A stretch of 60,532 bases of DNA from a virus: IMG/VR virus record IMGVR_UViG_3300012349_000001; one strand, written 5' to 3'. Within the stretch, counting starts at the first letter, position 1. Each line of letters begins with the position of its first letter. The notes beneath the pieces were generated by a model that made no database searches, was not told the DNA's origin, and saw only the letters and a program-made list of their open reading frames with translations. A program made the translations under genes and the position numbers. Shown here one piece after another: positions 3,224 to 40,187 of this stretch.

Positions 3224-4279
3224 ATGACAGCAAGTAACAATTATTACGGTTTTGTCGGCTTTCTTAGCCCGGCATATGCCTTTACACTTTACGATCAAAA
3301 TGGGTCACCATTGAATCTGACAGGTGTTGACGCTGCAACCATGGCATTTGAGTTGTTTGATATCAACGCACGCACAACAATACGCGGAAGCGGGACAATC
3401 ACCATTGTCAATGCTTCTCAAGGACTTGTCAGTTATCAATGGACATTTCAAGACTATGAGGCAATTTCAATTGCAAATTATAGAGCATATGCGACTGCAA
3501 AATTGCCAGGAGAAGCCGGGCCGCGTGCCTTTTTAGTTGGCACTGTTCTATTTGCTACTTTCCCAGGAGGTGCACCAGTGGCCGTACAAGATGTCAATCT
3601 CGACCAAGTAAATGGTCAAAATGTCCCCACTACCGTAAATGGTATCTCAGTTCCTAACGGGACGGTTCCAGTTGTAGTGGTAGTTCCATCAAGAGTAAAT
3701 GCGCAGTCAGGTGATTTTGCTGCTGGGGCCATAGCAGATCTCGCAACGCTTTTAGCTCTTGCAGGCACTTCAGGAGATGCCAACACCGTCAATAGCTTGA
3801 TGGGCAGGTTGACGAAGCTCAGGGACTTGCTGAGCGCATCACTTGCAGTCAATCTTGATGCGACAAACTCAACACATCTAGGCAATATCGATACTGCTAC
3901 CAGTGACCTCGTAGCCGATCTGGACACGCTCATCACGAACACAGGGAGAATACCAGCCTCTCCTGCTCAGGAAGGAGGCAATCTTGCCACGCTCATCCCT
4001 GGTGTGCAGGGATGGATCGCTGCTACAGGTCCCGGGACAGCAGGCCAGGATAACGCTCTCGCCTTTGCGCAACAAGTGCGTAAAATTGCACTCTACAATG
4101 CGAGTCCAAACAATGTGCCTCTTGAATTTGACCAGACAGCAGCGGCAACCTCTTTTCCCATTCCACCCGGGGCATTCTGGATTATCGATGGCGCTCTCTG
4201 CACTAATGTGCATGTGTTCCCATCGGTCACATTGCCAATTAACACGACCAGTGGTCTCTATGTGAAAGGATGGAAGTGA
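3224..4279 (+). CDS. tail fibre/baseplate-associated protein, 351 aa
   Basis: SD GAAGGGAG before the ATG; lies in the tail array. Function by position. Confidence 0.5.
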   Translation: MTASNNYYGFVGFLSPAYAFTLYDQNGSPLNLTGVDAATMAFELFDINARTTIRGSGTITIVNASQGLVSYQWTFQDYEAISIANYRAYATAKLPGEAGPRAFLVGTVLFATFPGGAPVAVQDVNLDQVNGQNVPTTVNGISVPNGTVPVVVVVPSRVNAQSGDFAAGAIADLATLLALAGTSGDANTVNSLMGRLTKLRDLLSASLAVNLDATNSTHLGNIDTATSDLVADLDTLITNTGRIPASPAQEGGNLATLIPGVQGWIAATGPGTAGQDNALAFAQQVRKIALYNASPNNVPLEFDQTAAATSFPIPPGAFWIIDGALCTNVHVFPSVTLPINTTSGLYVKGWK

Positions 4280-5790
4280 TGAGTCAACTTAATCCATCCC
4301 CAAAGCTACTGAATGGCAATGTGGGGATCAACACACCCTCTCCGGGCGAGGCTTTAGAGGTTGGGGCTACTACCTCAACACCAGGGCGCTTGAAGCTTAA
4401 CTCCTATCTTGAGACTGATTCAGCGGGCTCAGCCGAGGTATTGCGTATCTTTTTCAATACTCCAGCGAATTTAAATGGGAACGCTGCAAAGGCCGCGATA
4501 GCATGGTTCGATGCCTCGGTATCCACCACACAGTCAAAGGTCTGGGCGCAAGCACACGATTATCTGCACTTCTATAATCCTGTAACATTCGCTCCAAGTG
4601 CAGTCAACACGGGTACGGGCGTCATCACACTCCCTGCACAGAATGACGCTTATGTTGACAAATATCAGGTACAATTTAGCTCAAGTGGTACGCTTCCGGG
4701 TGGCCTATCGCCTGCCACTAACTATTACCTCAAACTCCTGACTTCAACGACATTTCAAATTTACAACGATTATGGACTGACGAGCCAAGTCACTTTGACG
4801 ACGCAAGGCACAGGCACGCATACTATCACGCCTAATAACGATTTTTGCAGCACTGATGGCGTGATATTCAACAGACATCGCCACTTCTCGATAGAAGTCT
4901 CTAAAGCTGATGGGCAGACAAAAACGAGTCGTTTTAGCATACCATTCGACTATGACACAACTGAGATTTCTACGTTTAGTGCCAATTTCAACGTTAATGC
5001 AGGTCTTAGCCGGATCGTGGGCGCACAGTCCAGTGACAAGCAACTGCAATTCGGGAATGCGCCGACTCCGAATCCGCGAGAGCCTGATGGGACAAATATC
5101 CGCTGGATTGTAAAGCAGGACAATGTTAGTGAAGCTGGCTCCAACGCTGGCTCAAACTTGCGGATCATTCCATGCAACGATTCCGGCGTGGCTCAAGCAT
5201 CCGCCTTGTATATCCAGCGATCCAGTGGCTTCGTTGGACTTGGTGGGAATAGCAGTCCGGGTGTACTACTGGATATTGGTGTTTTCTCGGCTGGTGGTGT
5301 GACAACACAGGCTCGAATAAATCGCGGCAATAACGTATCTCAGCAGGCACAACTACTATTCTCGACTGGCGGAGCAAACCAATGGTCTACTGGGATACGC
5401 AATGATAGTACCGAAAACTATCAGATCAGGGATAGCGTCAACTTCCGTAACCATCTTGTGTGTTATTTGACGCAAGGCATCACACAATTAGCATTAGGAT
5501 TTGCCAAGGCACTTACCACCAAATCAGGCAATTATACGGCGACCAACCAAGACCATAACATTCTGGTGGACGCTACGAGCACCGCTATCACTATCACTCT
5601 TCCCACAGCAGCCACATTAGCTGGTCAAGAGTTTCTGATAAAGGACTGGAAGGGCCAAGCTGCAACGCGCAATATCACCATTGCCACCACATCAGCGCAG
5701 ACGATTGATGGTGCTTCAACCAACGTTATCAATGCAAATTACGGGAAAGTACGTGTGGTGAGTGATGGTGCGAACTGGGCAACCATTTAG
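4270..5790 (+). CDS. tail fibre / receptor-binding candidate, 506 aa
   Basis: Overlaps the previous stop. Gly/Ser/Thr/Asn-rich with a beta-rich C-terminal region, as is usual for fibres. Confidence 0.5.
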   Translation: MEVMSQLNPSPKLLNGNVGINTPSPGEALEVGATTSTPGRLKLNSYLETDSAGSAEVLRIFFNTPANLNGNAAKAAIAWFDASVSTTQSKVWAQAHDYLHFYNPVTFAPSAVNTGTGVITLPAQNDAYVDKYQVQFSSSGTLPGGLSPATNYYLKLLTSTTFQIYNDYGLTSQVTLTTQGTGTHTITPNNDFCSTDGVIFNRHRHFSIEVSKADGQTKTSRFSIPFDYDTTEISTFSANFNVNAGLSRIVGAQSSDKQLQFGNAPTPNPREPDGTNIRWIVKQDNVSEAGSNAGSNLRIIPCNDSGVAQASALYIQRSSGFVGLGGNSSPGVLLDIGVFSAGGVTTQARINRGNNVSQQAQLLFSTGGANQWSTGIRNDSTENYQIRDSVNFRNHLVCYLTQGITQLALGFAKALTTKSGNYTATNQDHNILVDATSTAITITLPTAATLAGQEFLIKDWKGQAATRNITIATTSAQTIDGASTNVINANYGKVRVVSDGANWATI

Positions 5791-10639: not shown

Positions 10640-10800
10640 ACATTGCCTATACATCCTGAATTGCTGTCATGTTGTTGGGGCTATTTTCATTGTGTGACGT
10701 ACTCTCGCTATGCGGCATGGGCTTCTACGGGATCACCCGTTGGCTCCGTCCGAACCGAAAGTTGTTTTTGCCCTAATCTCAAGATGTTGATAGCCGCATT
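10640..10800 (-). ncRNA. candidate omega/reRNA scaffold of TnpB; boundaries not determined
   Basis: In characterised TnpB elements the guide RNA overlaps the 3' end of tnpB and the right end. A hairpin ACGGG-TGAT-CCCGT is visible here. Confidence 0.3.
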
Positions 10801-11919
10801 GTGATCACGGTCCAGCTCACAGCCACATTCGCATGAGTGCCAGCGTTCAGATAGCTCTTTCTTCTTGACCATTCCACATCCTGAGCAGGCTTGGCTTGTG
10901 TAGGATGGATTCACAAAGAGGACAGATCTACCAGCGTTTGCAGCTTTGTATTTCACCATCTCTGTAAAATTGTACCACCCGGCATCTAAAATTGACTTGT
11001 TTAACCCGCCTTTTGCAGCAGCCCCATTGTGCAAATACTCCCCGTTCTCACCTTGTTTGGGTTTAGGAGCTTTAGAAAGGTTTGCGGGTGCTAAATCTTC
11101 AAAGACAATCACCTGATAGCGATTGACCAGCTTACGAGACTCTTTGTGATGGAAGTCCTTACGCTGGTTACGTACCTTTCGATAAGCCTTAGCAACCTGT
11201 CTAACAGCTTTCTTACGCCTATGGGACCTGCGTTTCTTGCCAGAAAGCTTTCTCTGAAGTTTGGCTAACTTCTTCTCAGCACGTCGGTAGTGTCTAGGAT
11301 TCTCGATCATACTACCATTGGAAAGAGCAGCAAAATGGGTAATACCTAGGTCAATCCCCACGTCTTCACAGGAGAGTGGTGTGGTGTTTGCCTCTACTTC
11401 GCAGGCAAACACCACGTACCATGCATCCCCCTCACGTTTGATGGTTGTTGTCTTGATACTCCCTTCAAGTGCTCTATGCATCTTGACAGTGATAGATCCG
11501 ATCTTTGAAAGGATGAGCTTGGCATGTTTCTTCTCACTTGGGTTAAACTTCCATCCTGAACCATCTGGGTAGGTAAAACTATCATAGCGGTTACGCCCTT
11601 GAAATCTAGGAAAGCCGGGCTTCTCGCCTGCTTTCACCCGCCTGAAGAAAGCTTTATATGCAAGATCAACGCGTCTCAGCACGTTAGTAAGTACATGAGC
11701 ACCAATTTCTTGATACTCAGTGCGGATCTCGTGTTTAATCTCAGGGAGATCATTTATCTGATCAAAGCAAGTAATGCCCTTCTGTGCATACTTATAGGCC
11801 TCTTTGCGCTCTTGCAGAGCCGCGTTGTACAGCTCTCGACAACGGTCCAGTGTCCATTGCAGCTTTTGGGCAACTGCCTGGTTAGGATACAGCCTATACT
11901 TATATGCTTTTATTGCCAC
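10708..11919 (-). CDS. tnpB: TnpB (IS200/IS605-family RNA-guided nuclease), 403 aa
   Basis: RuvC motifs IDLGITHFA, VIVFEDL and LDRDHNAAINI. Zinc finger CSGCG...CECGC. GTG start after AAAGGAGGT. Confidence 0.9.
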   Translation of the reverse strand: MAIKAYKYRLYPNQAVAQKLQWTLDRCRELYNAALQERKEAYKYAQKGITCFDQINDLPEIKHEIRTEYQEIGAHVLTNVLRRVDLAYKAFFRRVKAGEKPGFPRFQGRNRYDSFTYPDGSGWKFNPSEKKHAKLILSKIGSITVKMHRALEGSIKTTTIKREGDAWYVVFACEVEANTTPLSCEDVGIDLGITHFAALSNGSMIENPRHYRRAEKKLAKLQRKLSGKKRRSHRRKKAVRQVAKAYRKVRNQRKDFHHKESRKLVNRYQVIVFEDLAPANLSKAPKPKQGENGEYLHNGAAAKGGLNKSILDAGWYNFTEMVKYKAANAGRSVLFVNPSYTSQACSGCGMVKKKELSERWHSCECGCELDRDHNAAINILRLGQKQLSVRTEPTGDPVEAHAA

Positions 11920-13755: not shown

Positions 13756-13806
13756 TTACTTAACTGCTATGTCTACATTGTAAACTATCGTAAACAGCTT
13801 GTCAAG
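13756..13806 (-). promoter_or_regulatory. 51-bp promoter cassette copy A (TTGACA-N17-TACAAT)
   Basis: Identical to 15614-15664. -35 at 13800-13805 and -10 at 13777-13782 on the - strand. Confidence 0.8.
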
Positions 13807-13840
13807 GGGTTTTGACAAGAGTTTTGAATTTGCTCAAAAC

Positions 13841-14167
13841 TCATGGCCTCGCTTTCCGCCTAGGATGATCTTTCCTGTACTGCTGGTCATACTCTCTGAC
13901 TTCACCAGGATGATCTTTCCTGTACTGCTTGGAATATTCCCGATACCTCTCAGGATTATTTGCGTACACTTGACGGGAGTCCTCCTTATGCTCTTCTGGA
14001 TGACTTTTGCGCCACCTCTCAGCAGCATCTTGCACATTGCTAGGATGATCTGATTGCCAGCCCCTGATGACAGCAAAACGATGCACGGCAGAGCATTCCT
14101 CGCATCGTTTTCGATTGCCATGAGAACCTGAAATATCTTCATGGCAATCCAGGCACTGCCTAGGCAT
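13841..14167 (-). CDS. zinc-ribbon protein with Y/W-x3-(N/H)P-E repeats and no nuclease domain, 108 aa
   Basis: CLDC...CEEC followed by SHPEEH, NNPERY and two KDHP units. The repeats are also visible in the DNA (13861-13883 and 13906-13928). Confidence 0.6.
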   Translation of the reverse strand: MPRQCLDCHEDISGSHGNRKRCEECSAVHRFAVIRGWQSDHPSNVQDAAERWRKSHPEEHKEDSRQVYANNPERYREYSKQYRKDHPGEVREYDQQYRKDHPRRKARP

Positions 14168-15613: not shown

Positions 15614-15664
15614 TTACTTAACTGCTATGTCTACATTGTAAACTATCGTAAACAGCTTGTCAAG
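15614..15664 (-). promoter_or_regulatory. 51-bp promoter cassette copy B (TTGACA-N17-TACAAT)
   Basis: Identical to 13756-13806. Confidence 0.8.
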
Positions 15665-15792
15665 AGGAAAATGGCCAATTCGGAGGCAGTTTTGAGAAAC
15701 CCATCATACCCGTATTGCATCTCTAAAAATAGGCAAAGAAAGAGGCCTCTAGATTTGACTCTGAGGCCTTATCAATTCTGGTGTAGAGACGG

Positions 15793-16023
15793 CTACACAG
15801 CTTCTGTCAATACTGACGTGGTAAGCAGCTTATTCAGCGTACTGCTCTTGATCCTATACGCCTGCCGCTTGTTTACGTGAGGTAGAACAACAACCTCCAA
15901 AGCACCAGCTTTCGCCCAGCGGCGTACGGTTGTGTCATCAACACGTACTCTCTTAGCTACTTCTGCCACGGTTAGCAGCGTATCTTCCTCTTGATGGTGT
16001 GCATGGCCTGTATGTGTGGACAT
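15793..16023 (-). CDS. excisionase/MerR-type HTH DNA-binding protein, 76 aa
   Basis: LLTVAEVAKRVRVDDTTVRRWAKAG helix-turn-helix; SD GAAGGAG. Confidence 0.6.
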   Translation of the reverse strand: MSTHTGHAHHQEEDTLLTVAEVAKRVRVDDTTVRRWAKAGALEVVVLPHVNKRQAYRIKSSTLNKLLTTSVLTEAV

Positions 16024-16072
16024 GATATATTTCTCCTTCTACTGAGAATAGACAATCAAATGCATGTATCAC

Positions 16073-16100
16073 ACTATACCATAGCATCTGCAAATGTCAA
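16073..16100 (-). promoter_or_regulatory. promoter TTGACA-N16-TATAGT
   Basis: -35 at 16095-16100 and -10 at 16073-16078 on the - strand, with TGG just 5' of the -10 box. Confidence 0.6.
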
Positions 16101-16187
16101 TCAATTCTGCTTGTGCAACAAAAATGTGACACATCTTGGCACATTCCCATATAGACATAGACTACTTCCATCCGCTATAATAGAGCC

Positions 16188-16398
16188 ATGATCTAAAAGT
16201 CACATGCGGTTATTTTGACGTTGATGGGTTATGGTAGATGTGTACAGCGGCTGCATGAGGCTGGAGGATACTTGCTACGACAAATTAAAACCTGTCGGGG
16301 GACGCCGCTTTCATTGATTGGCAGAGGAAGTGGCGTTTCTCGTTGTGTGAGGATAAAAAGAGGGCTCGACCAAGATAGATGGTCGAGCCCTCTTTTGT
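16188..16398 (+). ncRNA. candidate ~210-nt noncoding transcript
   Basis: Runs from a TAGACA-N18-TATAAT promoter (16152-16181) to the bidirectional terminator. No convincing ORF or SD inside. Confidence 0.3.
16355..16398. terminator. bidirectional intrinsic terminator
   Basis: 13-bp stem AGAGGGCTCGACC/GGTCGAGCCCTCT. T-run on the + strand and TTTTTAT on the - strand. Confidence 0.8.
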
Positions 16399-16408
16399 GC
16401 AGATGAAG

Positions 16409-16609
16409 CTAGAGAGAAAGATCGTTGCCAGTGATGCTGACCGGAGCTGTGACAGGGGATGTGACGTTGCCCACTGCCACTCTATTGAGTGCGTCAAGTG
16501 TCACATCACCAACATTCAGCAGATCAGTGACACTGAGCCCACCAGTGATACCAGCCAGCTCCTCATCAGATAGTTCCCGCTCGTCATTAAAGCCATTGTC
16601 CTTGTCCAT
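16409..16609 (-). CDS. secreted-peptide precursor with a double-glycine leader, 66 aa
   Basis: LSDEELAGITGG matches the leader consensus LSxxELxxIxGG exactly. SD AGGAGGA precedes the start and a strong terminator follows the gene. Confidence 0.7.
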   Translation of the reverse strand: MDKDNGFNDERELSDEELAGITGGLSVTDLLNVGDVTLDALNRVAVGNVTSPVTAPVSITGNDLSL

Positions 16610-16641
16610 CGTTCCTCCTGAGAAAGGTTTTCATCAGTATA

Positions 16642-17361
16642 TCACAGTTTGCCGTGCTTTCTCAATAGCTCTACAGCACTCTCTTGCTGCTCATACGTAA
16701 AATACCTATTCGAGTATCCCTTGCGACTTGTTGGTACTAATGTTACATCCATCCTTTCACCAGCTATGCCGCGCCTGATATACCCGTCTAGGAGTGTGTA
16801 TTCGATGCCAATCTTAGTAGCGAAGTCGCGAGCTGAGAGTATGCCGTCTCCAGATGGCCCTACAATCGATTTCTGAGGCTGCGTTTTTGTGGTGGATGCA
16901 TGAGAGGATGAGACAGGGATAGACATGCTAGGACTATCTGTAGCAGGTTGTGACTGAGCTCTCTCTATCTCGCTTACGCGGCGTTCCAGCTCTTCGATAT
17001 AAGCTTGCTGCATATCGCAACGAGCCTGAAGCTTGCCTAGCTGCTTTACCGTCTCTGCGAGGGTTGTATCTGTCAGAGGCAGGCTGTCTACATCTGTCTC
17101 AGCCTGTCTATTAGTAGATGTGACAGCTTGTGAAGTTCTGAACATGTCTCGCTCACGTTGGACTTCTAAACGCAAATGCTCAACTTGATCTTCAGAGATA
17201 ACGAGCTGACCAGTGGGGGTTTTGCCCTCTTCCGGGACAATCTTGCCTCTCTCAATGTATCTGAGCAATGTCTTATAGCTTATCCCAATACGCTTAGCAG
17301 CACTAAGACCGTTATAGTAGTGCATAGCATGTCTCATCCTGTCTCTATAGTCTTGAGACAA
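16642..17361 (-). CDS. DNA-binding protein with N- and C-terminal HTH-like segments and a central coiled coil, 239 aa
   Basis: GISYKTLLRYIERGKI and SARDFATKIGIEYTLLDGYIRRG. TTG start; an internal ATG is an alternative. Confidence 0.55.
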   Translation of the reverse strand: MSQDYRDRMRHAMHYYNGLSAAKRIGISYKTLLRYIERGKIVPEEGKTPTGQLVISEDQVEHLRLEVQRERDMFRTSQAVTSTNRQAETDVDSLPLTDTTLAETVKQLGKLQARCDMQQAYIEELERRVSEIERAQSQPATDSPSMSIPVSSSHASTTKTQPQKSIVGPSGDGILSARDFATKIGIEYTLLDGYIRRGIAGERMDVTLVPTSRKGYSNRYFTYEQQESAVELLRKHGKL

Positions 17362-17660: not shown

Positions 17661-18752
17661 TCATACATCCAATTCTACCAGATCTTCTAGCGGTCTGGTG
17701 ACTTTTCGATGTCCGTTTGTAACTGGTAACGGATCGGTGTTTTGCTCCGCTTGGCTGGCCGGCAATTCGCCACTATCAGCGGCGTTTTGCTCTGCTCTAT
17801 TCGTCGGCAATGGGACGGTTTTGAGCCAGTCGATAACCGATGATACCAAGATCAAATCTTTGTTCCTTCCAGAGCGTTGAAACGGCGCTCTATTGATCCG
17901 TCGTTTCGATTGTCCGGTGACCTGCATAATCTCGTCCAAAGTGACGGTCTTCTTGTTCTTTGCTAGCCATTCATTCGCCACTTTTGGATAGTTTTCCAGG
18001 ACCTGCAAAAGATCGGTATCCACCGGGTTATGCTCAGCAGATTGAGTAGGCGCTGAGACGTTTTGGGCTGGCTCATTCTGCTCAGTATCCACCGTGTTTG
18101 GAGCAACTGATCCGGGCTCTATAATTGCAGGTGCCTGGGCAAAGATAATTGAGTTTTGCATCTCTTTCAAACGCTGTTTTAGGTCCTCAATTTGCTCTTC
18201 AAAAGCCGCTTTTAATTGCTCCGATTCGCTCTCTATAGCCTGATTTACAATAGCCTCAATATCAGGCTCCATAACGTCTATCGATTCGTCTTTCAAAGTG
18301 TGGATTGCATGACCGAATAAGACCGCCATAACTGAGCGAATGATGAGCAGAATACCCTCTGTGATTTGCATCCATTGGACTGGAACAGCGAACACCCTGC
18401 CAGCCGTTGCAAAGATCATATTAATGACCATCAAAACGATTAATGCGACGCCGATTCCCCTAGCAAATTTGAACTTCTCAGGGTCCTCATCCTTGGTCAA
18501 TTTGATGAGTCCCATTCCTCCCACATCAAGAGCCGCTTGCTGAATGACGAACGCCACAGCATTGATACTCGGTGTAGGCTGTGGGACACCTGGGACAAGC
18601 TCATAGCCGCTATAGAGCACTGAGGCAAAGAGCACAGGCTCAGCAGCTTTACCAGCTAGCCCCAGAAACCAATTCCATAAGGCTGTGATGTAGTTGCTCC
18701 GAACGAAGCCACGCCAGAGCTGACGCCCATTGATACGCTTTAAATTGAACAT
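17661..18752 (-). CDS. polytopic membrane protein with a C-terminal HTH-like region, 363 aa
   Basis: About 4 hydrophobic segments in the N-terminal 170 aa. C-terminal TLDEIMQVTGQSKRRINRA. Confidence 0.6.
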   Translation of the reverse strand: MFNLKRINGRQLWRGFVRSNYITALWNWFLGLAGKAAEPVLFASVLYSGYELVPGVPQPTPSINAVAFVIQQAALDVGGMGLIKLTKDEDPEKFKFARGIGVALIVLMVINMIFATAGRVFAVPVQWMQITEGILLIIRSVMAVLFGHAIHTLKDESIDVMEPDIEAIVNQAIESESEQLKAAFEEQIEDLKQRLKEMQNSIIFAQAPAIIEPGSVAPNTVDTEQNEPAQNVSAPTQSAEHNPVDTDLLQVLENYPKVANEWLAKNKKTVTLDEIMQVTGQSKRRINRAPFQRSGRNKDLILVSSVIDWLKTVPLPTNRAEQNAADSGELPASQAEQNTDPLPVTNGHRKVTRPLEDLVELDV

Positions 18753-19244
18753 TTACCGTTTCCTCCTACGAGTTACTTTCTTCCTAATTCCTAGCTTCTT
18801 TTCCCTCTCAGCAAGTGCAATCCTTCGCTCTCTCGCCTCTAGATTGGCCCGCTTCCTTGCACTTGCCTGCACACGCTTGACGGTCTTGTGAGCCTTCCTG
18901 ACACCTTTCACAGTGCCTGCTACAGCTCGCCCGGTCGCTTTCGCACCAGCCCATAGTACAGCACCAGTCTTGCGAGCGAACCGACCGAAGCTATCACGTG
19001 GCTGCTCTTCACCCGGCATACGATAGGCTGGTAGAGCTTTCTTTGGCCTGGCCTCTACCCGCGTCTGCTTCATCGTGGCCTTAGAGCGTGCTATGGTAGC
19101 CTTGTGCTGCATAGTGTTTGGCTTGCAAGCTTTGGCAGTGGGCCTCACGTTGCGTGTACGGGCCGCTCTCACTGCCTGGGCCTCGGCCTCTTTCCACTCC
19201 TGAGCTGTCATCTTTTTCAGTGGGAGATCTTCCATGCGTTCCAT
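18753..19244 (-). CDS. highly basic Lys/Arg/Ala-rich protein, 163 aa
   Basis: Abuts both neighbours without gaps. Composition suggests nucleic-acid binding. Confidence 0.55.
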   Translation of the reverse strand: MERMEDLPLKKMTAQEWKEAEAQAVRAARTRNVRPTAKACKPNTMQHKATIARSKATMKQTRVEARPKKALPAYRMPGEEQPRDSFGRFARKTGAVLWAGAKATGRAVAGTVKGVRKAHKTVKRVQASARKRANLEARERRIALAEREKKLGIRKKVTRRRKR

Positions 19245-20824
19245 CAGGCGTTCCCCCTCCTGCGCTGGTCGTACTCATCACAGACCGCTTTCACCATCCA
19301 ATATTCATCACCATTCAGATCAAGCATTCCCTGGATGTCAGTCCTCTTTGTGCCATCCCTGTATAAGCCAAGAATGGCTTCTTTCGCCCTTTCGGGTACC
19401 TCTTTGCCCACGGTCTTTCGCGGATACTCCGAAAGTTTCGAGATGTTCTCAACTGGCTCTACAAGGCTTTCGAGACTATTTCGCCATGGTTCGCTGCTTG
19501 CTTGCTTGTTTTCATCGAAATTTCGAGACTGCTGATATTGCCTAAGCTCACTTAATCCAGGTGTATTAGCCCCATGTGGTGAATGCCTTACACGCATTTG
19601 TACAAGCATCTTGCTCACTTTGGATGAGAAAAAGTAGCCTTGCCCATCATGAAGAGAAAGCGTCTCATCATTGGTTATGCCCATAGCAGTGTACTTTTTC
19701 AGATCGTTTAATTCGGTCTGCCGATGGAGCAATTTGACATCACACTGAAGAGCCCGCTTGTCAACCTCTGCTATTTTCTGGCAGATGACCGTCAAGCCCA
19801 GTCCTCGCTTGCGACCCTTCCTCACCATGTCATTGAAGAAAGCATCTTGCAGGCGGTTGAAGATCTCGGTCCCGTTCAACTGACTCTCATTCACATTTTG
19901 TGGGAGCCAGGTCGTTGCCTCTTCTAGTAGGAATTCACACGGGACACGTATCTCGTTCGCTCGCTCTTCCTGCCATTGCTTCATACCAGCGATGATATTG
20001 ACCATGATCTGTGCTGCCTCTGGCATCTCGTATGAGTGCAGGTTAAGCACAGCCTGAATATTCTGCTCTAGGACATGCCTACCGAATTGCTCAGCATTCC
20101 CAACATTGACGACTCGGCTATCTACTCTCATCGCATGAGGCAGATAGCGACGGTCACAGAGAGACTCGTATTCGTTCTCAGTATCTGCCAGCACCATCGG
20201 TACATCTAGACGGCCTAACTCCTCACAAGTCGTTGCTGTACTGTTGCTCTTTCCAGAACCTGAAACCCCCACAATCAGTTTCCTGCCAGACAGGAATTCG
20301 TCAGCATGTGGCTGGTAGTCCTCTGAGATGTTGAGGTATTCATTGACTGGCTTTGCTTGCTCGATTCTTTTCGTGTCATCTTCAGTGTCGTCATCATAGC
20401 CGTACTCATCTAGAAGCGGCATGAGTCGCTGTATGGCAGTTGAAGCAGACCCAACAACCTGAGCAGTCTTCTGTTGCTGGCCTATCAATTGAGCTTGCAT
20501 TTGAAGCAATTCAGTAAGCCCCAGACCCTCAGCAGATCCGATCTGTATCACCTGAGTGCCACGCACCACAATAGCACGTGCCACTTGCTCGCCTTTGCCA
20601 TCCTTGATCACCAGAGTGTGACGACCTTTCCAGATTTTGACGCCTATAGCCGCGCATCCGAGTCCAACCCCTGTGAAAAAGAGGATCTTGAGCCCTGTAA
20701 CAAGGTCCCTCAAGAACGAGAGGAAGCCAGCATGGATAGCCGGATCTAGCAGGAGCAAGAATGATCCAAGAATGATGACACCAATGAAACACAGCCCTGC
20801 GAGGACAGTATCTTTCGTATTCAT
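19244..20824 (-). CDS. membrane-anchored HerA/FtsK-superfamily (DUF87-like) P-loop ATPase, 526 aa
   Basis: N-terminal TM segments; Walker A GVSGSGKS; DTENEY; Walker B LLEEATTWLP; KGRKRGLGLTVICQK. ATGA overlap with the upstream gene; SD GGAGG. Confidence 0.75.
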   Translation of the reverse strand: MNTKDTVLAGLCFIGVIILGSFLLLLDPAIHAGFLSFLRDLVTGLKILFFTGVGLGCAAIGVKIWKGRHTLVIKDGKGEQVARAIVVRGTQVIQIGSAEGLGLTELLQMQAQLIGQQQKTAQVVGSASTAIQRLMPLLDEYGYDDDTEDDTKRIEQAKPVNEYLNISEDYQPHADEFLSGRKLIVGVSGSGKSNSTATTCEELGRLDVPMVLADTENEYESLCDRRYLPHAMRVDSRVVNVGNAEQFGRHVLEQNIQAVLNLHSYEMPEAAQIMVNIIAGMKQWQEERANEIRVPCEFLLEEATTWLPQNVNESQLNGTEIFNRLQDAFFNDMVRKGRKRGLGLTVICQKIAEVDKRALQCDVKLLHRQTELNDLKKYTAMGITNDETLSLHDGQGYFFSSKVSKMLVQMRVRHSPHGANTPGLSELRQYQQSRNFDENKQASSEPWRNSLESLVEPVENISKLSEYPRKTVGKEVPERAKEAILGLYRDGTKRTDIQGMLDLNGDEYWMVKAVCDEYDQRRRGNA

Positions 20825-21174
20825 GCCCTTACCTCCTGCACTCCAAAAAAAGACATGATCGATGGTAAAAGGACACAGGTGAGCTTTATGCAGATAAGCA
20901 GCATAGCCCACGTGACGAACGTTGCAGCTACAGCTACATAATTGCCATTTAACAGGGAAAATGTCGCTTGACATACGCCGCTAAGCGCATGGATGAAGAG
21001 GACAAGCACGCCACATGCCCAGATGAGCACGTAGAATGCAAGAGCAAGTGCGGTCACGATAGCCGCAATGCTCGCGATGTATGCCAAGACCTGCAGCGTT
21101 GACCGTGCAGTCCTGATGAGGTTGTCACTTGGTATAAAAATTGTCATTAGCTTGGCTCCTTGCATGGCTACCAA
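20821..21174 (-). CDS. polytopic small membrane protein, 117 aa
   Basis: 3-4 hydrophobic segments. Translationally coupled to the ATPase gene. Confidence 0.6.
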   Translation of the reverse strand: MVAMQGAKLMTIFIPSDNLIRTARSTLQVLAYIASIAAIVTALALAFYVLIWACGVLVLFIHALSGVCQATFSLLNGNYVAVAATFVTWAMLLICIKLTCVLLPSIMSFFGVQEVRA

Positions 21175-22257: not shown

Positions 22258-22287
22258 ATCATACCATACAGCTTAGGTTCTTGTCAA
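22258..22287 (-). promoter_or_regulatory. leftward promoter TTGACA-N18-TATGAT
   Basis: -35 at 22282-22287 and -10 at 22258-22263 on the - strand, with TGG just 5' of the -10 box. Confidence 0.6.
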
Positions 22288-22333
22288 GCATATTTGCTAT
22301 CAATTTTCCTATCAATATTGATTGAATACATGG

Positions 22334-22362
22334 TTGACAACATGCTAGCAATGTGTTATTAT
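22334..22362 (+). promoter_or_regulatory. rightward promoter TTGACA-N17-TATTAT
   Basis: -35 at 22334-22339 and -10 at 22357-22362. CTATCAAT occurs twice, with the palindrome TCAATATTGA just upstream. Confidence 0.65.
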
Positions 22363-22410
22363 AAGAGAGTCGAGAGACACGAAAATCTTGTAAAGCAATG
22401 GAGGGACCCT

Positions 22411-23001
22411 ATGGAGCATGCAACTGAAGGATGCACCTGCGAGGGTAAATTCTGTAAAGATTGCAAGCAAACAAAGTGCTTAGGCCATATGTGCTGGTAC
22501 AATTTCAATGGTCAGAAGCATTATCGCTTCTGGTGCATCTCTTGCTATAGTAATTATAGAAAAGAAAAGGGGGTCACAAAAAGATGGTACCAGAAGCATA
22601 AGGTCGAGAATAACCAATGGCAAAAGAACAATCCTGATAAGGCGGCAAGAAGTACCAAGAAATGGCAAAAGAACAATCCTGATAAGGTAAAAGCAAATCG
22701 ACATGTCGGTAGACAAAAACACAGAGCTAGAAAAAAACGAGCTGTTGGTACTTATACATTCAATGAATGGGCGACACTAAAGGCCAAGTATAACAACACT
22801 TGTCTCCGCTGCGGTCGTAAAGAACCAGAAATCAAGTTGACTGCCGATCATGTTGTACCACTCTCAAAAGGAGGTGATAACTACATAAGCAATATACAGC
22901 CTTTATGTCATTCCTGCAATTCAAGCAAGAGAGCAAAAACCATCGATTATCGTACTCAGAAAGAAACAGAACAGCCCCTGCGCCAACAGAAGCTGTTCTA
23001 G
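22411..23001 (+). CDS. HNH endonuclease with an N-terminal zinc-ribbon/NPDK-repeat region, 196 aa
   Basis: C-terminal CLRCG...LTADHVVPLSKGGDN..NIQPLCHSCNSSK. Start set at MEHATEG, after GGAGGGA. Confidence 0.8.
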   Translation: MEHATEGCTCEGKFCKDCKQTKCLGHMCWYNFNGQKHYRFWCISCYSNYRKEKGVTKRWYQKHKVENNQWQKNNPDKAARSTKKWQKNNPDKVKANRHVGRQKHRARKKRAVGTYTFNEWATLKAKYNNTCLRCGRKEPEIKLTADHVVPLSKGGDNYISNIQPLCHSCNSSKRAKTIDYRTQKETEQPLRQQKLF

Positions 23002-39275: not shown

Positions 39276-40187
39276 ATGGAAGAGCGAAACTTAGTCCCAC
39301 AAGAAGTCCCTAGCCTACCGCAATCGTTTGCAAATGTTGCTGGGCAGTTATCACCAAAATCTAAACGTATTTATGAGCATGACGCCATAGCTTTTGCGAC
39401 ATGGCTTAATGAGAACAAATGCGAATTAACACGTGAAAGTGTTATTATGTATAGACAGTACTTGAGTCAACGTTATAAGCCTACAACAGCAAAAAGGATG
39501 TGGTCGGTTGTGTGTAGAATACTTGACGAGCAAGTTATGTCAGGGAACATTGCGAATAATCCAACAGAAGGAGTAAGAGGGCTTAAAGCTAATGGCAATG
39601 CTTCAAAGCATATTTCTCTATCTAAAGAGCAAGCACATGCTTTGCTTGAAGTTATAGATGTGAGTACGAAAAAAGGCAAGAGGGATTATGCAATTATACT
39701 GCTGCTGATCAAGACTGGATTAAGAAGATTTGAGTGTGCAGCATTAAACCTAGAGGACATGAGAGAAGAGCAGGGACATCATACTCTATTCCTTAGTGAA
39801 ACAAAGGGTGATAAGCTTGATACGGTCAAATTATCACCAGACGTATGGAGAGCGATTGATATCTATCTAGAGACTGTGGACAGAAATAATGTATCTCAGA
39901 AAGATCCTCTGTTTATTAGCTTCAGAAAAGGAGATCATCAGCAGAGCAAGCGCATTTCCCCAAATGATATTTATCGATCTGTCAAGGAATATGCTGAGAA
40001 AGCAGGGATCAAGCAGTTATCACCCCATGGGTTGCGTGCCACGTTTATCACGCTCTCTATTGAGGGTGGAGCGCCACTTCATAAGGTTCAGTATGCAGCT
40101 CGTCACAGCGACCCGCGAATGACCGAGCACTACCACAAACGCAAGCAAAACTTGGATAAAAGTGCTGTTGACTATATGGATTGGTAA
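39276..40187 (+). CDS. int: tyrosine recombinase / phage integrase, 303 aa
   Basis: TGLRRFE, HGLRATFITL and AARHSDPRMTEHY supply the R..H-x-x-R..Y catalytic pattern. Confidence 0.9.
   Translation: MEERNLVPQEVPSLPQSFANVAGQLSPKSKRIYEHDAIAFATWLNENKCELTRESVIMYRQYLSQRYKPTTAKRMWSVVCRILDEQVMSGNIANNPTEGVRGLKANGNASKHISLSKEQAHALLEVIDVSTKKGKRDYAIILLLIKTGLRRFECAALNLEDMREEQGHHTLFLSETKGDKLDTVKLSPDVWRAIDIYLETVDRNNVSQKDPLFISFRKGDHQQSKRISPNDIYRSVKEYAEKAGIKQLSPHGLRATFITLSIEGGAPLHKVQYAARHSDPRMTEHYHKRKQNLDKSAVDYMDW

Follow-up and report, generated by a model that had tools for sequence, protein, structure and literature searches.

What would a phage gain from a peptide shaped for export by a transporter that it does not itself carry? 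The question is raised by a short gene on the minus strand of an uncultured soil phage, at positions 16409..16609 of IMG/VR record IMGVR_UViG_3300012349_000001, which was analysed as one stretch of 60,532 nucleotides (hereafter, the window). A first-pass annotation, made from the sequence alone, had picked out this gene for its textbook double-glycine (GG) leader and for the lack of transporter or modification genes in the phage. Here we show that the open reading frame (ORF) is a protein-coding gene under purifying selection, that it forms a transcription unit of its own, and that its product has a GG leader conserved in three related phages. We tentatively propose that the peptide is cargo for a peptidase-containing ATP-binding cassette (ABC) transporter (PCAT) of the host, and that it would act outside the cell.

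A conserved gene with a double-glycine leader

The translation of 16409..16609 on the minus strand was identical to the 66-residue product quoted in the first-pass annotation. The gene and its signals are arranged as follows.

16636..16665, minus strand: promoter of the peptide gene, sigma-70-like, TTGAGA-18 nt-TATACT with an upstream TG (extended -10); consensus scan, 10/12 matches
16610..16632, minus strand: short 5' untranslated region (UTR) with a small 5' hairpin, ending at the AGGAGG Shine-Dalgarno sequence; from the sequence
16538..16609, minus strand: double-glycine leader, codons 1-24, MDKDNGFNDERELSDEELAGITGG; TIGR01847 match to residues 12-24
16412..16537, minus strand: predicted mature peptide of 42 residues, codons 25-66, LSVTDLLNVGDVTLDALNRVAVGNVTSPVTAPVSITGNDLSL; from the translation
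16409-16411, minus strand: stop codon of the peptide gene; from the translation
16397..16411, minus strand: 15-nt block TAGCTTCATCTGCAC (stop codon plus 12 nt), invariant in the four phages; from the alignment
16352..16396, minus strand: intrinsic terminator, 17-bp stem followed by a U tract; from RNA folding

No position of the leader departs from the consensus L(-12) S(-11) xx E(-8) L(-7) xx I(-4) x G(-2) G(-1), as had been claimed; L13, E17, L18, I21, G23, and G24 are at consensus positions. The NCBIfam model TIGR01847 ('bacteriocin_sig'), which is curated and comprises 15 positions, scored the window peptide at 16.1 bits for a cutoff of 15.7 (library-wide E-value of 0.013, corresponding to a per-model P of about 7e-7) and the three other variants described below at 16.4, 18.1, and 17.4 bits. 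The remaining weak matches in Pfam and NCBIfam involved only the leader parts of GG-peptide families (ComC, Bacteriocin_IIc, mersacidin/lichenicidin, lactococcin, lactococcin G-beta, cerein 7B, and pheromone VP1). A regular expression for GG leaders retrieved this ORF only within the window, and shuffled windows yielded 0.2 matches over all six frames. Thus, the motif alone is weak evidence, and the case for the leader rests on the motif combined with its N-terminal position, the score of the hidden Markov model, the conservation in four homologs, and the ratio of nonsynonymous to synonymous substitution rates (dN/dS).

Homologs were searched for in a word-indexed collection of 5.8 billion proteins; apart from the peptide itself, this gave two variants only, P0002 (63 residues, 75% identity) and P0003 (60 residues, 59% identity). 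Scanning IMG/VR with an alignment of the peptides added one variant of 59 residues. In the public data searched, the total is therefore four variants, three besides the window peptide, all of them in related uncultured soil phages. No further homolog of the core emerged when 1.84 billion cluster representatives were searched in full by HMMER with a three-sequence profile, and comparison with GenBank phages by tblastn found nothing similar. The invariant motif following the stop codon, when run against viral and metagenome contigs, recovered only the phage of the 59-residue variant and three chance matches. The peptide had no family match in PHROG or PADLOC. By these comparisons the cores are orphan sequences, with no homolog beyond the four phages in the data searched, and the variants make up a narrowly distributed new family of GG-leader peptides that falls in no known bacteriocin, lanthipeptide, pheromone, or PHROG family. 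Pairwise dN/dS values among the variants ranged from 0.11 to 0.54 (dS of 0.46 to 2.05), which establishes that this is a real protein-coding gene under purifying selection.

Selection has kept the leader in a specific manner. Leaders of 22-24 residues occur within precursors of 59-66 residues, the motif occupying residues 12-24 of the window precursor. Residues E10, R11, E12, L13, D15, E16, E17, L18, G23, and G24 are invariant in three of the four variants, P0001-P0003, and kept in the fourth, so that the pattern ERELxDEEL....GG-L, including the GG pair whose loss in homologs would have spoken against the first-pass annotation, is present in 4/4 variants. Within the leader, positions -12, -8, -7, -2, and -1 are invariant, -4 is I or V, and -3, -5, and -6 vary; this variation matches the pattern expected for GG leaders at positions recognized by C39 peptidases. 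AlphaFold2 placed a helix in the leader at residues 15-21. Three further observations concern similar sequences. The additional hits of the profile search shared the leader only or were spurious: a fungal HEAT-repeat protein, a low-complexity protein, and two multi-leader proteins in uninformative contexts. The two multi-leader metagenomic proteins, P0005 (contig L102) and P0007 (contig L101), contain two or three tandem ERELTDEELDxVxGG leaders per ORF and appear, from these repeats, to be multi-leader GG precursors; no PCAT was found in the 8-kb flanks available in L101, and L102 is a 2-kb contig. An NCBIfam match of 2/4 variants to the amyloid chaperone FapA was dismissed as noise (14.8-15.9 bits for a cutoff of 110).

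In the window the predicted core begins at Leu25 and comprises 42 residues (4222 Da) with a net charge of -3.2, an isoelectric point (pI) of 4.05, and no Cys, Lys, His, or aromatic residue, in line with the earlier description of a Cys-free, anionic core unlike cationic class II bacteriocins. The predicted mature peptides of the four variants (37-42 residues) each have a net charge of -3.2 and a pI of 4.05; their composition is limited to 11 residue types (V, L, S, D, T, N, G, A, I, P, and R), with Cys, Lys, His, Met, and aromatic residues absent from all four. The blocks DLLNVGDV, RV.VGN, and GND are invariant in the four cores. Since the leader contributes a charge of about -6.5, the whole 66-mer is close to -10. 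The cationic, amphiphilic character of membrane-active class II bacteriocins was found in none of the cores, which are anionic and of inconsistent amphipathicity, the helical hydrophobic moment exceeding that of shuffled sequences in only one of the four variants; neither was similarity of the core to a known bacteriocin family, since the Pfam and NCBIfam matches cover the leader only. The AlphaFold2 model, built on a three-sequence alignment, had a predicted local distance difference test (pLDDT) score of 54.6 and weak helices in the core, a confidence too low for a fold search. Two classes of modified peptide were rejected. A lanthipeptide precursor is not possible because the core has no Cys in any variant, and no LanM, LanC, YcaO, or radical-SAM match was found among the Pfam matches of the genome. 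A lasso peptide was discarded because residue -2 can be T or Y rather than a conserved Thr, and because the position of Asp fits only a non-standard ring.

The signals surrounding the gene are strong and conserved. The promoter lies within the 3' end of the upstream regulator gene, about 20-25 nt 5' of the start codon, and its -10 block, CTGTG(A/G)TATA(C/A)T, was kept in the alignment of all four phages. The strong ribosome binding and termination signals proposed in the first-pass annotation were both recovered, as an AGGAGG located 4 nt 5' of the ATG and as a 17-bp stem followed by a U tract. The terminator hairpin starts 13 nt past the stop codon, its stem shows compensatory changes in the relatives, and it could work in both directions because a run of A precedes the stem. 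With its own promoter and its own terminator, the peptide gene is a monocistronic unit, autonomous for transcription. The 5' UTR contains a block, GAAAACCTTTCTCAGGAGGA, that is invariant in three phages, and a hairpin at the same place in the four variants (-4.8 to -8.9 kcal/mol, none individually significant); this hairpin could not be distinguished statistically from those of shuffled sequences and was misaligned by RNAalifold. No Rfam match was obtained between 15000 and 18000. The 15-nt block TAGCTTCATCTGCAC occurs once in the window, and it is invariant although the synonymous sites of the gene have diverged, near saturation in some pairs.

A phage without exporter and its probable host

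The identical peptide was present in three independent assemblies of about 60.55 kb each. The samples are all soils, JGI 3300012206 and 3300012211 among them. The window is one circular permutation of the genome, the tape-measure gene spanning its two ends. Pfam matches over the called genes included a DnaB helicase, a large terminase, a tape-measure protein with an SLT domain, an Amidase_2 endolysin, a holin, two HNH nucleases, an HTH_3 protein, an IS605-type TnpB, and the following enzyme.

39276-40187: tyrosine integrase; Pfam, 3.1e-27

The integrase, an Xis-like gene of the HTH_17 type, and the HTH_3 gene are features of temperate phages, and the phage is probably temperate on this gene content. 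It has no tRNA gene and no close relative among cultured phages. Peptidase_C39, ABC transporter, LanM/LanC, YcaO, and radical-SAM domains were all absent from the Pfam matches of all called genes in the whole genome. As the genome is circularly permuted and was covered entirely, the lack of an exporter and of modification enzymes holds for the complete phage, and export would require a PCAT of the host. The first-pass annotation had stated that exporter, immunity gene, and enzymes for peptides synthesized by ribosomes and modified post-translationally (RiPPs) were all missing; this stands for exporter and enzymes, and not for immunity, since an immunity gene is not excludable by homology.

Three indirect lines of evidence indicate that the host probably belongs to the Ktedonobacteria (Chloroflexota). 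The main clue is the IS605-type TnpB (OrfB_IS605 / Cas12f-like TNB) encoded at 10708-11919 on the minus strand, whose best genome matches were in Dictyobacter, Ktedonobacteraceae, and Ktedonobacterales (55-69%), compared with at most 50% in Deinococcota. Tetranucleotide usage correlated with the flanks of Ktedonobacteria/Chloroflexota TnpB loci at r = 0.65 (up to 0.83), compared with 0.14-0.45 for other groups. Finally, a homolog of the upstream regulator was found in a Ktedonobacteraceae metagenome-assembled genome (MAG), on a contig with a tape-measure gene. The large terminase was uninformative about the host, its best matches among cultured phages (30-37%) being scattered over phages of Proteobacteria.

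Ktedonobacter racemifer contains two HalT/LanT (C39-ABC) homologs, one located in a LanM cluster with ten precursors and the other without precursor (PMC3951391), and class II lanthipeptide precursors with GG cleavage sites have been described in nine Ktedonobacteria genomes (PMC6497799). Krac_11909 and Krac_11043 are examples of LanT homologs from Ktedonobacteria. These LanT homologs and GG-cleaved precursors make a host PCAT plausible.

Neighbouring genes and accessory status

The peptide gene is flanked by the following features.

16642..17361, minus strand: MerR_1/HTH_17-type DNA-binding protein of 227 residues from ATG 17325 (the start chosen by gene callers) or 239 residues from TTG 17361; Pfam MerR_1, 4.1e-5
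16057..16346, minus strand: conserved non-coding region, from the terminator to the HTH_17 gene; 72-82% DNA identity among the four phages
16073-16100, minus strand: promoter of the HTH_17 gene, TTGACA-16-TATAGT; promoter scan
15793..16023, minus strand: HTH_17 excisionase-like protein of 76 residues; Pfam HTH_17, 9.6e-10, and PHROG excisionase families

The presence of DNA-binding proteins on both sides, as described earlier, was thus borne out, the upstream one being of the MerR_1/HTH_17 type and the downstream one an HTH_17 excisionase-like protein. The description of the former as containing two helix-turn-helix (HTH) domains was only partly so, since Pfam detected the N-terminal one only. 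PADLOC returned only generic HerA and HTH matches for the neighbours of the peptide. Protein identities in the region compare as follows.

Peptide: 63-76% among the four phages
Upstream regulator: 37-51% among the four phages
Downstream HTH_17 protein: 56-76% among the four phages
363-residue membrane protein: 39% between the window and L001 (the L001/L002 phage)

The HerA-like ATPase was undetectable by tblastn between the window and the L001 phage. By these figures, the peptide is the best-kept gene of the region, generally above the downstream HTH_17 gene too.

The upstream regulator, which belongs to a family of 37 proteins, is syntenic in all four phages that have the peptide. Four further regulator loci, including that of the closest homolog (57% identity), have no GG-type ORF downstream, and one of these peptide-free loci occupies a phage-like contig that was binned with a Ktedonobacteraceae MAG. 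Since homologs of the regulator occur in related phages without a GG peptide, the peptide is not an obligate partner of the regulator, and the functional tie to the 16642-17361 protein envisaged in the first-pass annotation is unlikely as an obligatory pairing. In two of the peptide phages, L001 and L095, ORFs of 72 and 89 residues are inserted just past the peptide terminator; they are unrelated to each other and are absent from the window. The peptide-free regulator loci and these inserted ORFs together point to an accessory, moron-like cassette at a spot prone to insertion. No conserved ORF was found between the terminator of the peptide gene and the next gene that could provide immunity, although homology cannot exclude one, and the terminator directly following the stop codon implies that no immunity gene is co-transcribed with the peptide.

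Several side observations were made on the region and on the rest of the genome. In the non-coding stretch of about 300 nt at 16057-16346, which may be an operator or an attP-like region, several blocks are invariant and an inverted repeat, AACGCCGCTTCC...GAAAGCGGCGT, is conserved. The motif GCTRTACACATCTACC is present four times in the window (16233-, 23686+, 1949+, and 36314-) for 0.7 expected. Further upstream of the peptide gene, a polytopic membrane protein of 363 residues (17661-18752, minus strand) and a membrane-anchored HerA/DUF87 (TraG P-loop-like) ATPase (19244-20974, minus strand) are encoded in one leftward operon, a pairing reminiscent of the DNA-translocation or conjugation-type modules of mycelial bacteria. 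In relative L095 (IMGVR_UViG_3300012211_000004), which encodes the 59-residue variant, an actin-like gene of the ALP_N/ParM type (3442-4554) is located about 750 nt upstream of the regulator-peptide module, and this phage may be maintained as a plasmid-prophage. The two contigs carrying P0002, L001 (ERZ25039605 contig_44575, 101.6 kb) and L002 (ERZ25039506 contig_10132, 81.4 kb), exceed the window phage by 20-40 kb; either integration as prophages with host flanks or a larger phage genome could account for this. A direct repeat of 54 nt, 98% identical, at 13756-13809 and 15614-15667 includes in each copy a minus-strand near-consensus promoter, TTGACA-17-TACAAT, the two copies probably being duplicated early promoters or operators. 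The interval 22258-22362, between a leftward early operon (HTH_3 gene first) and a rightward HNH gene, combines divergent near-consensus promoters (11/12 each) with overlapping palindromes and is likely a genetic switch region. Tandem duplications with a 45-nt period were found inside two ORFs, at 13862-13939 in a 108-residue protein (13841-14167) with repeated YRKDHP-like motifs, and at 22616-22687 in the HNH gene (22294-23001).

Candidate roles and comparison with known systems

We favor the following account of the gene. Host RNA polymerase would transcribe the cassette from the cassette's own promoter, and the precursor would be produced in quantity, the phage providing the cargo only. A host transporter of the PCAT/LanT type would bind the amphipathic helix of the leader, cleave after Gly24, and export an anionic peptide of 37-42 residues (the 42-mer in the case of the window), which would act outside the cell on behalf of the lysogen or the infected cell. 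The likeliest use would be that of an unmodified, non-classical antagonist, similar to a bacteriocin or a microcin, directed against non-lysogens or competitors. Antagonism is taken as the default role because phage-borne biosynthetic loci are nearly all bacteriocins and because PCATs export peptides encoded elsewhere. Such loci were found in 69 of 10,063 phage genomes and in about 3% of prophages and specify almost exclusively bacteriocins (bioRxiv 10.1101/2020.10.01.322628), and PCATs pool their substrates, ComAB and BlpAB serving one pool of GG peptides irrespective of where these are encoded (PMC6016807). That the peptide is a true C39/PCAT substrate appears, from its leader and its conservation, slightly favored over the opposite. 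The whole chain of events, antagonism included, is held to a probability of about 0.35, because three hallmarks of class II bacteriocins are missing: charge and amphiphilicity, a linked immunity gene, and homology of the core.

Several points weigh against this account. The core has none of the usual class II traits, being anionic (-3.2), devoid of Lys and aromatic residues, and without a consistent amphipathic helix, and no immunity gene is co-transcribed with the peptide. Bacteriocins and pheromones commonly diversify fast, whereas the core here is strongly conserved amid diverged neighbours. The leader scores barely exceed the cutoff of TIGR01847, a model of only 15 positions; a small acidic phage protein could gain an acidic amphipathic helix and a GG pair for other reasons. 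The AlphaFold2 model is uninformative at a pLDDT of 54.6. Finally, the host assignment is indirect, and the presence of a PCAT is taken from the literature on one cultured species, K. racemifer.

An alternative is a product that stays inside the cell, namely a small acidic phage protein that would bind some protein of the host or of the phage; it could be a DNA mimic, an anti-defence inhibitor, or the partner of a flanking DNA-binding protein, for instance, and its likeness to GG leaders would be convergent. Such a protein could be very acidic throughout (about -6.5 for the leader and -3.2 for the core), would be at home among early and regulatory genes, between two HTH proteins, and would be better conserved than most of its neighbours, as expected when contacting a conserved target; the core without bacteriocin-like physicochemistry and a phage without exporter, immunity gene, or receptor among its Pfam matches would fit as well. 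We nevertheless regard this alternative as unlikely, though deserving of attention. A curated GG-leader model accepts each of the four variants, whose other matches are confined to GG-leader families, the conservation pattern of the leader fits the positions of C39 recognition, and a peptide with no confident fold (pLDDT of 54.6) and a core of 11 residue types without aromatic residue would be an unusual small globular inhibitor. The lack of a PHROG or PADLOC family match also argues against a role of this type.

The leader evidence applies equally to a secreted signal, exported and cleaved by the host PCAT in the manner of ComC or BlpC, that would report the density of lysogens or infections and steer the lysis-lysogeny decision or host development, as an analogue of arbitrium using another export route. 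A signal needs no immunity gene, the weak leader matches include ComC and pheromone VP1, and the gene directly follows a transcription regulator and precedes a conserved 300-nt regulatory region and an Xis-like gene. However, no histidine kinase, receptor of the tetratricopeptide repeat (TPR)/RRNPP type, or other candidate receptor was found among the Pfam matches of the genome, the upstream regulator is present without the peptide in related phages, and 37-42 residues is long for a GG-type pheromone. Furthermore, the channels of such signals would not be private, given that four diverged phages have nearly the same N-terminal half of the core. Signaling is improbable on this balance. Yet more so, to the point of being a long shot, is a leader-bearing decoy that, by occupying the host's PCAT or LanM-type enzyme during infection, would keep host GG peptides, such as lanthipeptides or other defensive or developmental peptides, from being exported or matured. 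The phage does provide a leader-bearing substrate alone, class II lanthipeptide clusters with LanT and GG leaders abound in the predicted host class, and the strong promoter, Shine-Dalgarno sequence, and terminator suggest high expression; but purifying selection has conserved the core too strongly for a pure decoy, which would not need a constrained core, the core has no Cys for lanthionine formation, and the comparisons gave no signal of interference. A broader version of the last two ideas, in which the phage of a filamentous Chloroflexota host would hijack the host PCAT to secrete a non-toxin peptide, either as a density or kin signal feeding into lysis-lysogeny circuitry or as a competitor shutting off the export of host GG peptides such as defensive lanthipeptides, is likewise a doubtful prospect. 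Export of an antagonist therefore remains the account that we prefer, with the probability stated above.

Comparison with known systems places the peptide near several of them. As in arbitrium (AimR-AimP-AimX), a small peptide gene of the early region immediately follows the gene of a transcription regulator in the present, probably temperate, phage. However, AimP has a Sec signal peptide and is trimmed outside the cell to a hexapeptide recognized by AimR, a TPR receptor, whereas the leader here is of the GG type and the regulator is MerR/HTH_17-like, with no TPR domain detected by Pfam; the locus does not have the makeup of an arbitrium system. The Nap peptides of the Neisseria nap island bear GG motifs and are encoded on an element gained by horizontal transfer; one has a phage (Inoviridae) homolog, and their role turned out to be other than the killing of competitors (PMC11798529); GG peptides on mobile elements thus need not be competitor-killing toxins. 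The Nap peptides differ from the present one in being cationic and in having a C39 peptidase, an export channel, and an immunity-like protein encoded on the island, and the sequences are not similar.

The nearest phage precedent is sublancin 168 of the Bacillus subtilis prophage SPbeta (sunA-sunT-bdbA-sunS-bdbB, and sunI), in which a temperate phage likewise carries the precursor for a C39-ABC transporter as a trait of lysogenic conversion. SPbeta brings the SunT transporter, a glycosyltransferase, thiol-disulfide oxidoreductases, and an immunity protein, whereas the phage described here brings the precursor only; sublancin is Cys-rich and glycosylated, and it has no sequence similarity to the phage peptide. 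Known phage-borne bacteriocin loci bring their own export and immunity genes.

The GG-leader/PCAT peptides as a group (ComC/ComAB, Blp/BlpAB, class II bacteriocins, and class II lanthipeptides with LanT; TIGR01847) share with the phage peptide a 22-24-residue L-S-x-x-E-L-x-x-I-x-G-G leader, a short precursor, and a predicted leader helix, and a transporter encoded elsewhere has its precedent in the shared ComAB/BlpAB pool (PMC6016807). On sequence criteria, the peptide belongs with this class through its leader. They differ in that the present gene is carried by a phage replicon without transporter, immunity, kinase, or modification gene, and in that its core is anionic, belongs to no family, and lacks Lys and aromatic residues.

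To our knowledge, secretion of GG peptides has not been studied in Ktedonobacteria, nor have peptide secretion, lysogenic conversion, or phage communication in Chloroflexota at large. If the proposed export is correct, this cargo-only GG peptide would demonstrate that a phage can make use of a host PCAT by contributing a single gene; more viral genes should then be read as secreted effectors, and in Chloroflexota the locus would offer an entry point to peptide secretion, to lysogenic conversion, and perhaps to phage communication. The chemistry of the core, which is anionic, built from 11 residue types, strongly conserved, and unlike that of bacteriocins, suggests that its activity may not be conventional membrane killing, and hijacking of a PCAT for signaling or interference, if true, would be a new class of phage-host peptide interaction. 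The first-pass annotation went too far in presenting the locus as an undescribed system, since it consists of one cargo gene, the leader is of a known type, and bacteriocins carried by prophages have precedents, sublancin on SPbeta being an example. Phage-borne GG-leader or bacteriocin-like peptides are thus familiar; what is new, as judged from the sequences compared, is a narrow family with orphan cores, carried as a cargo-only cassette.

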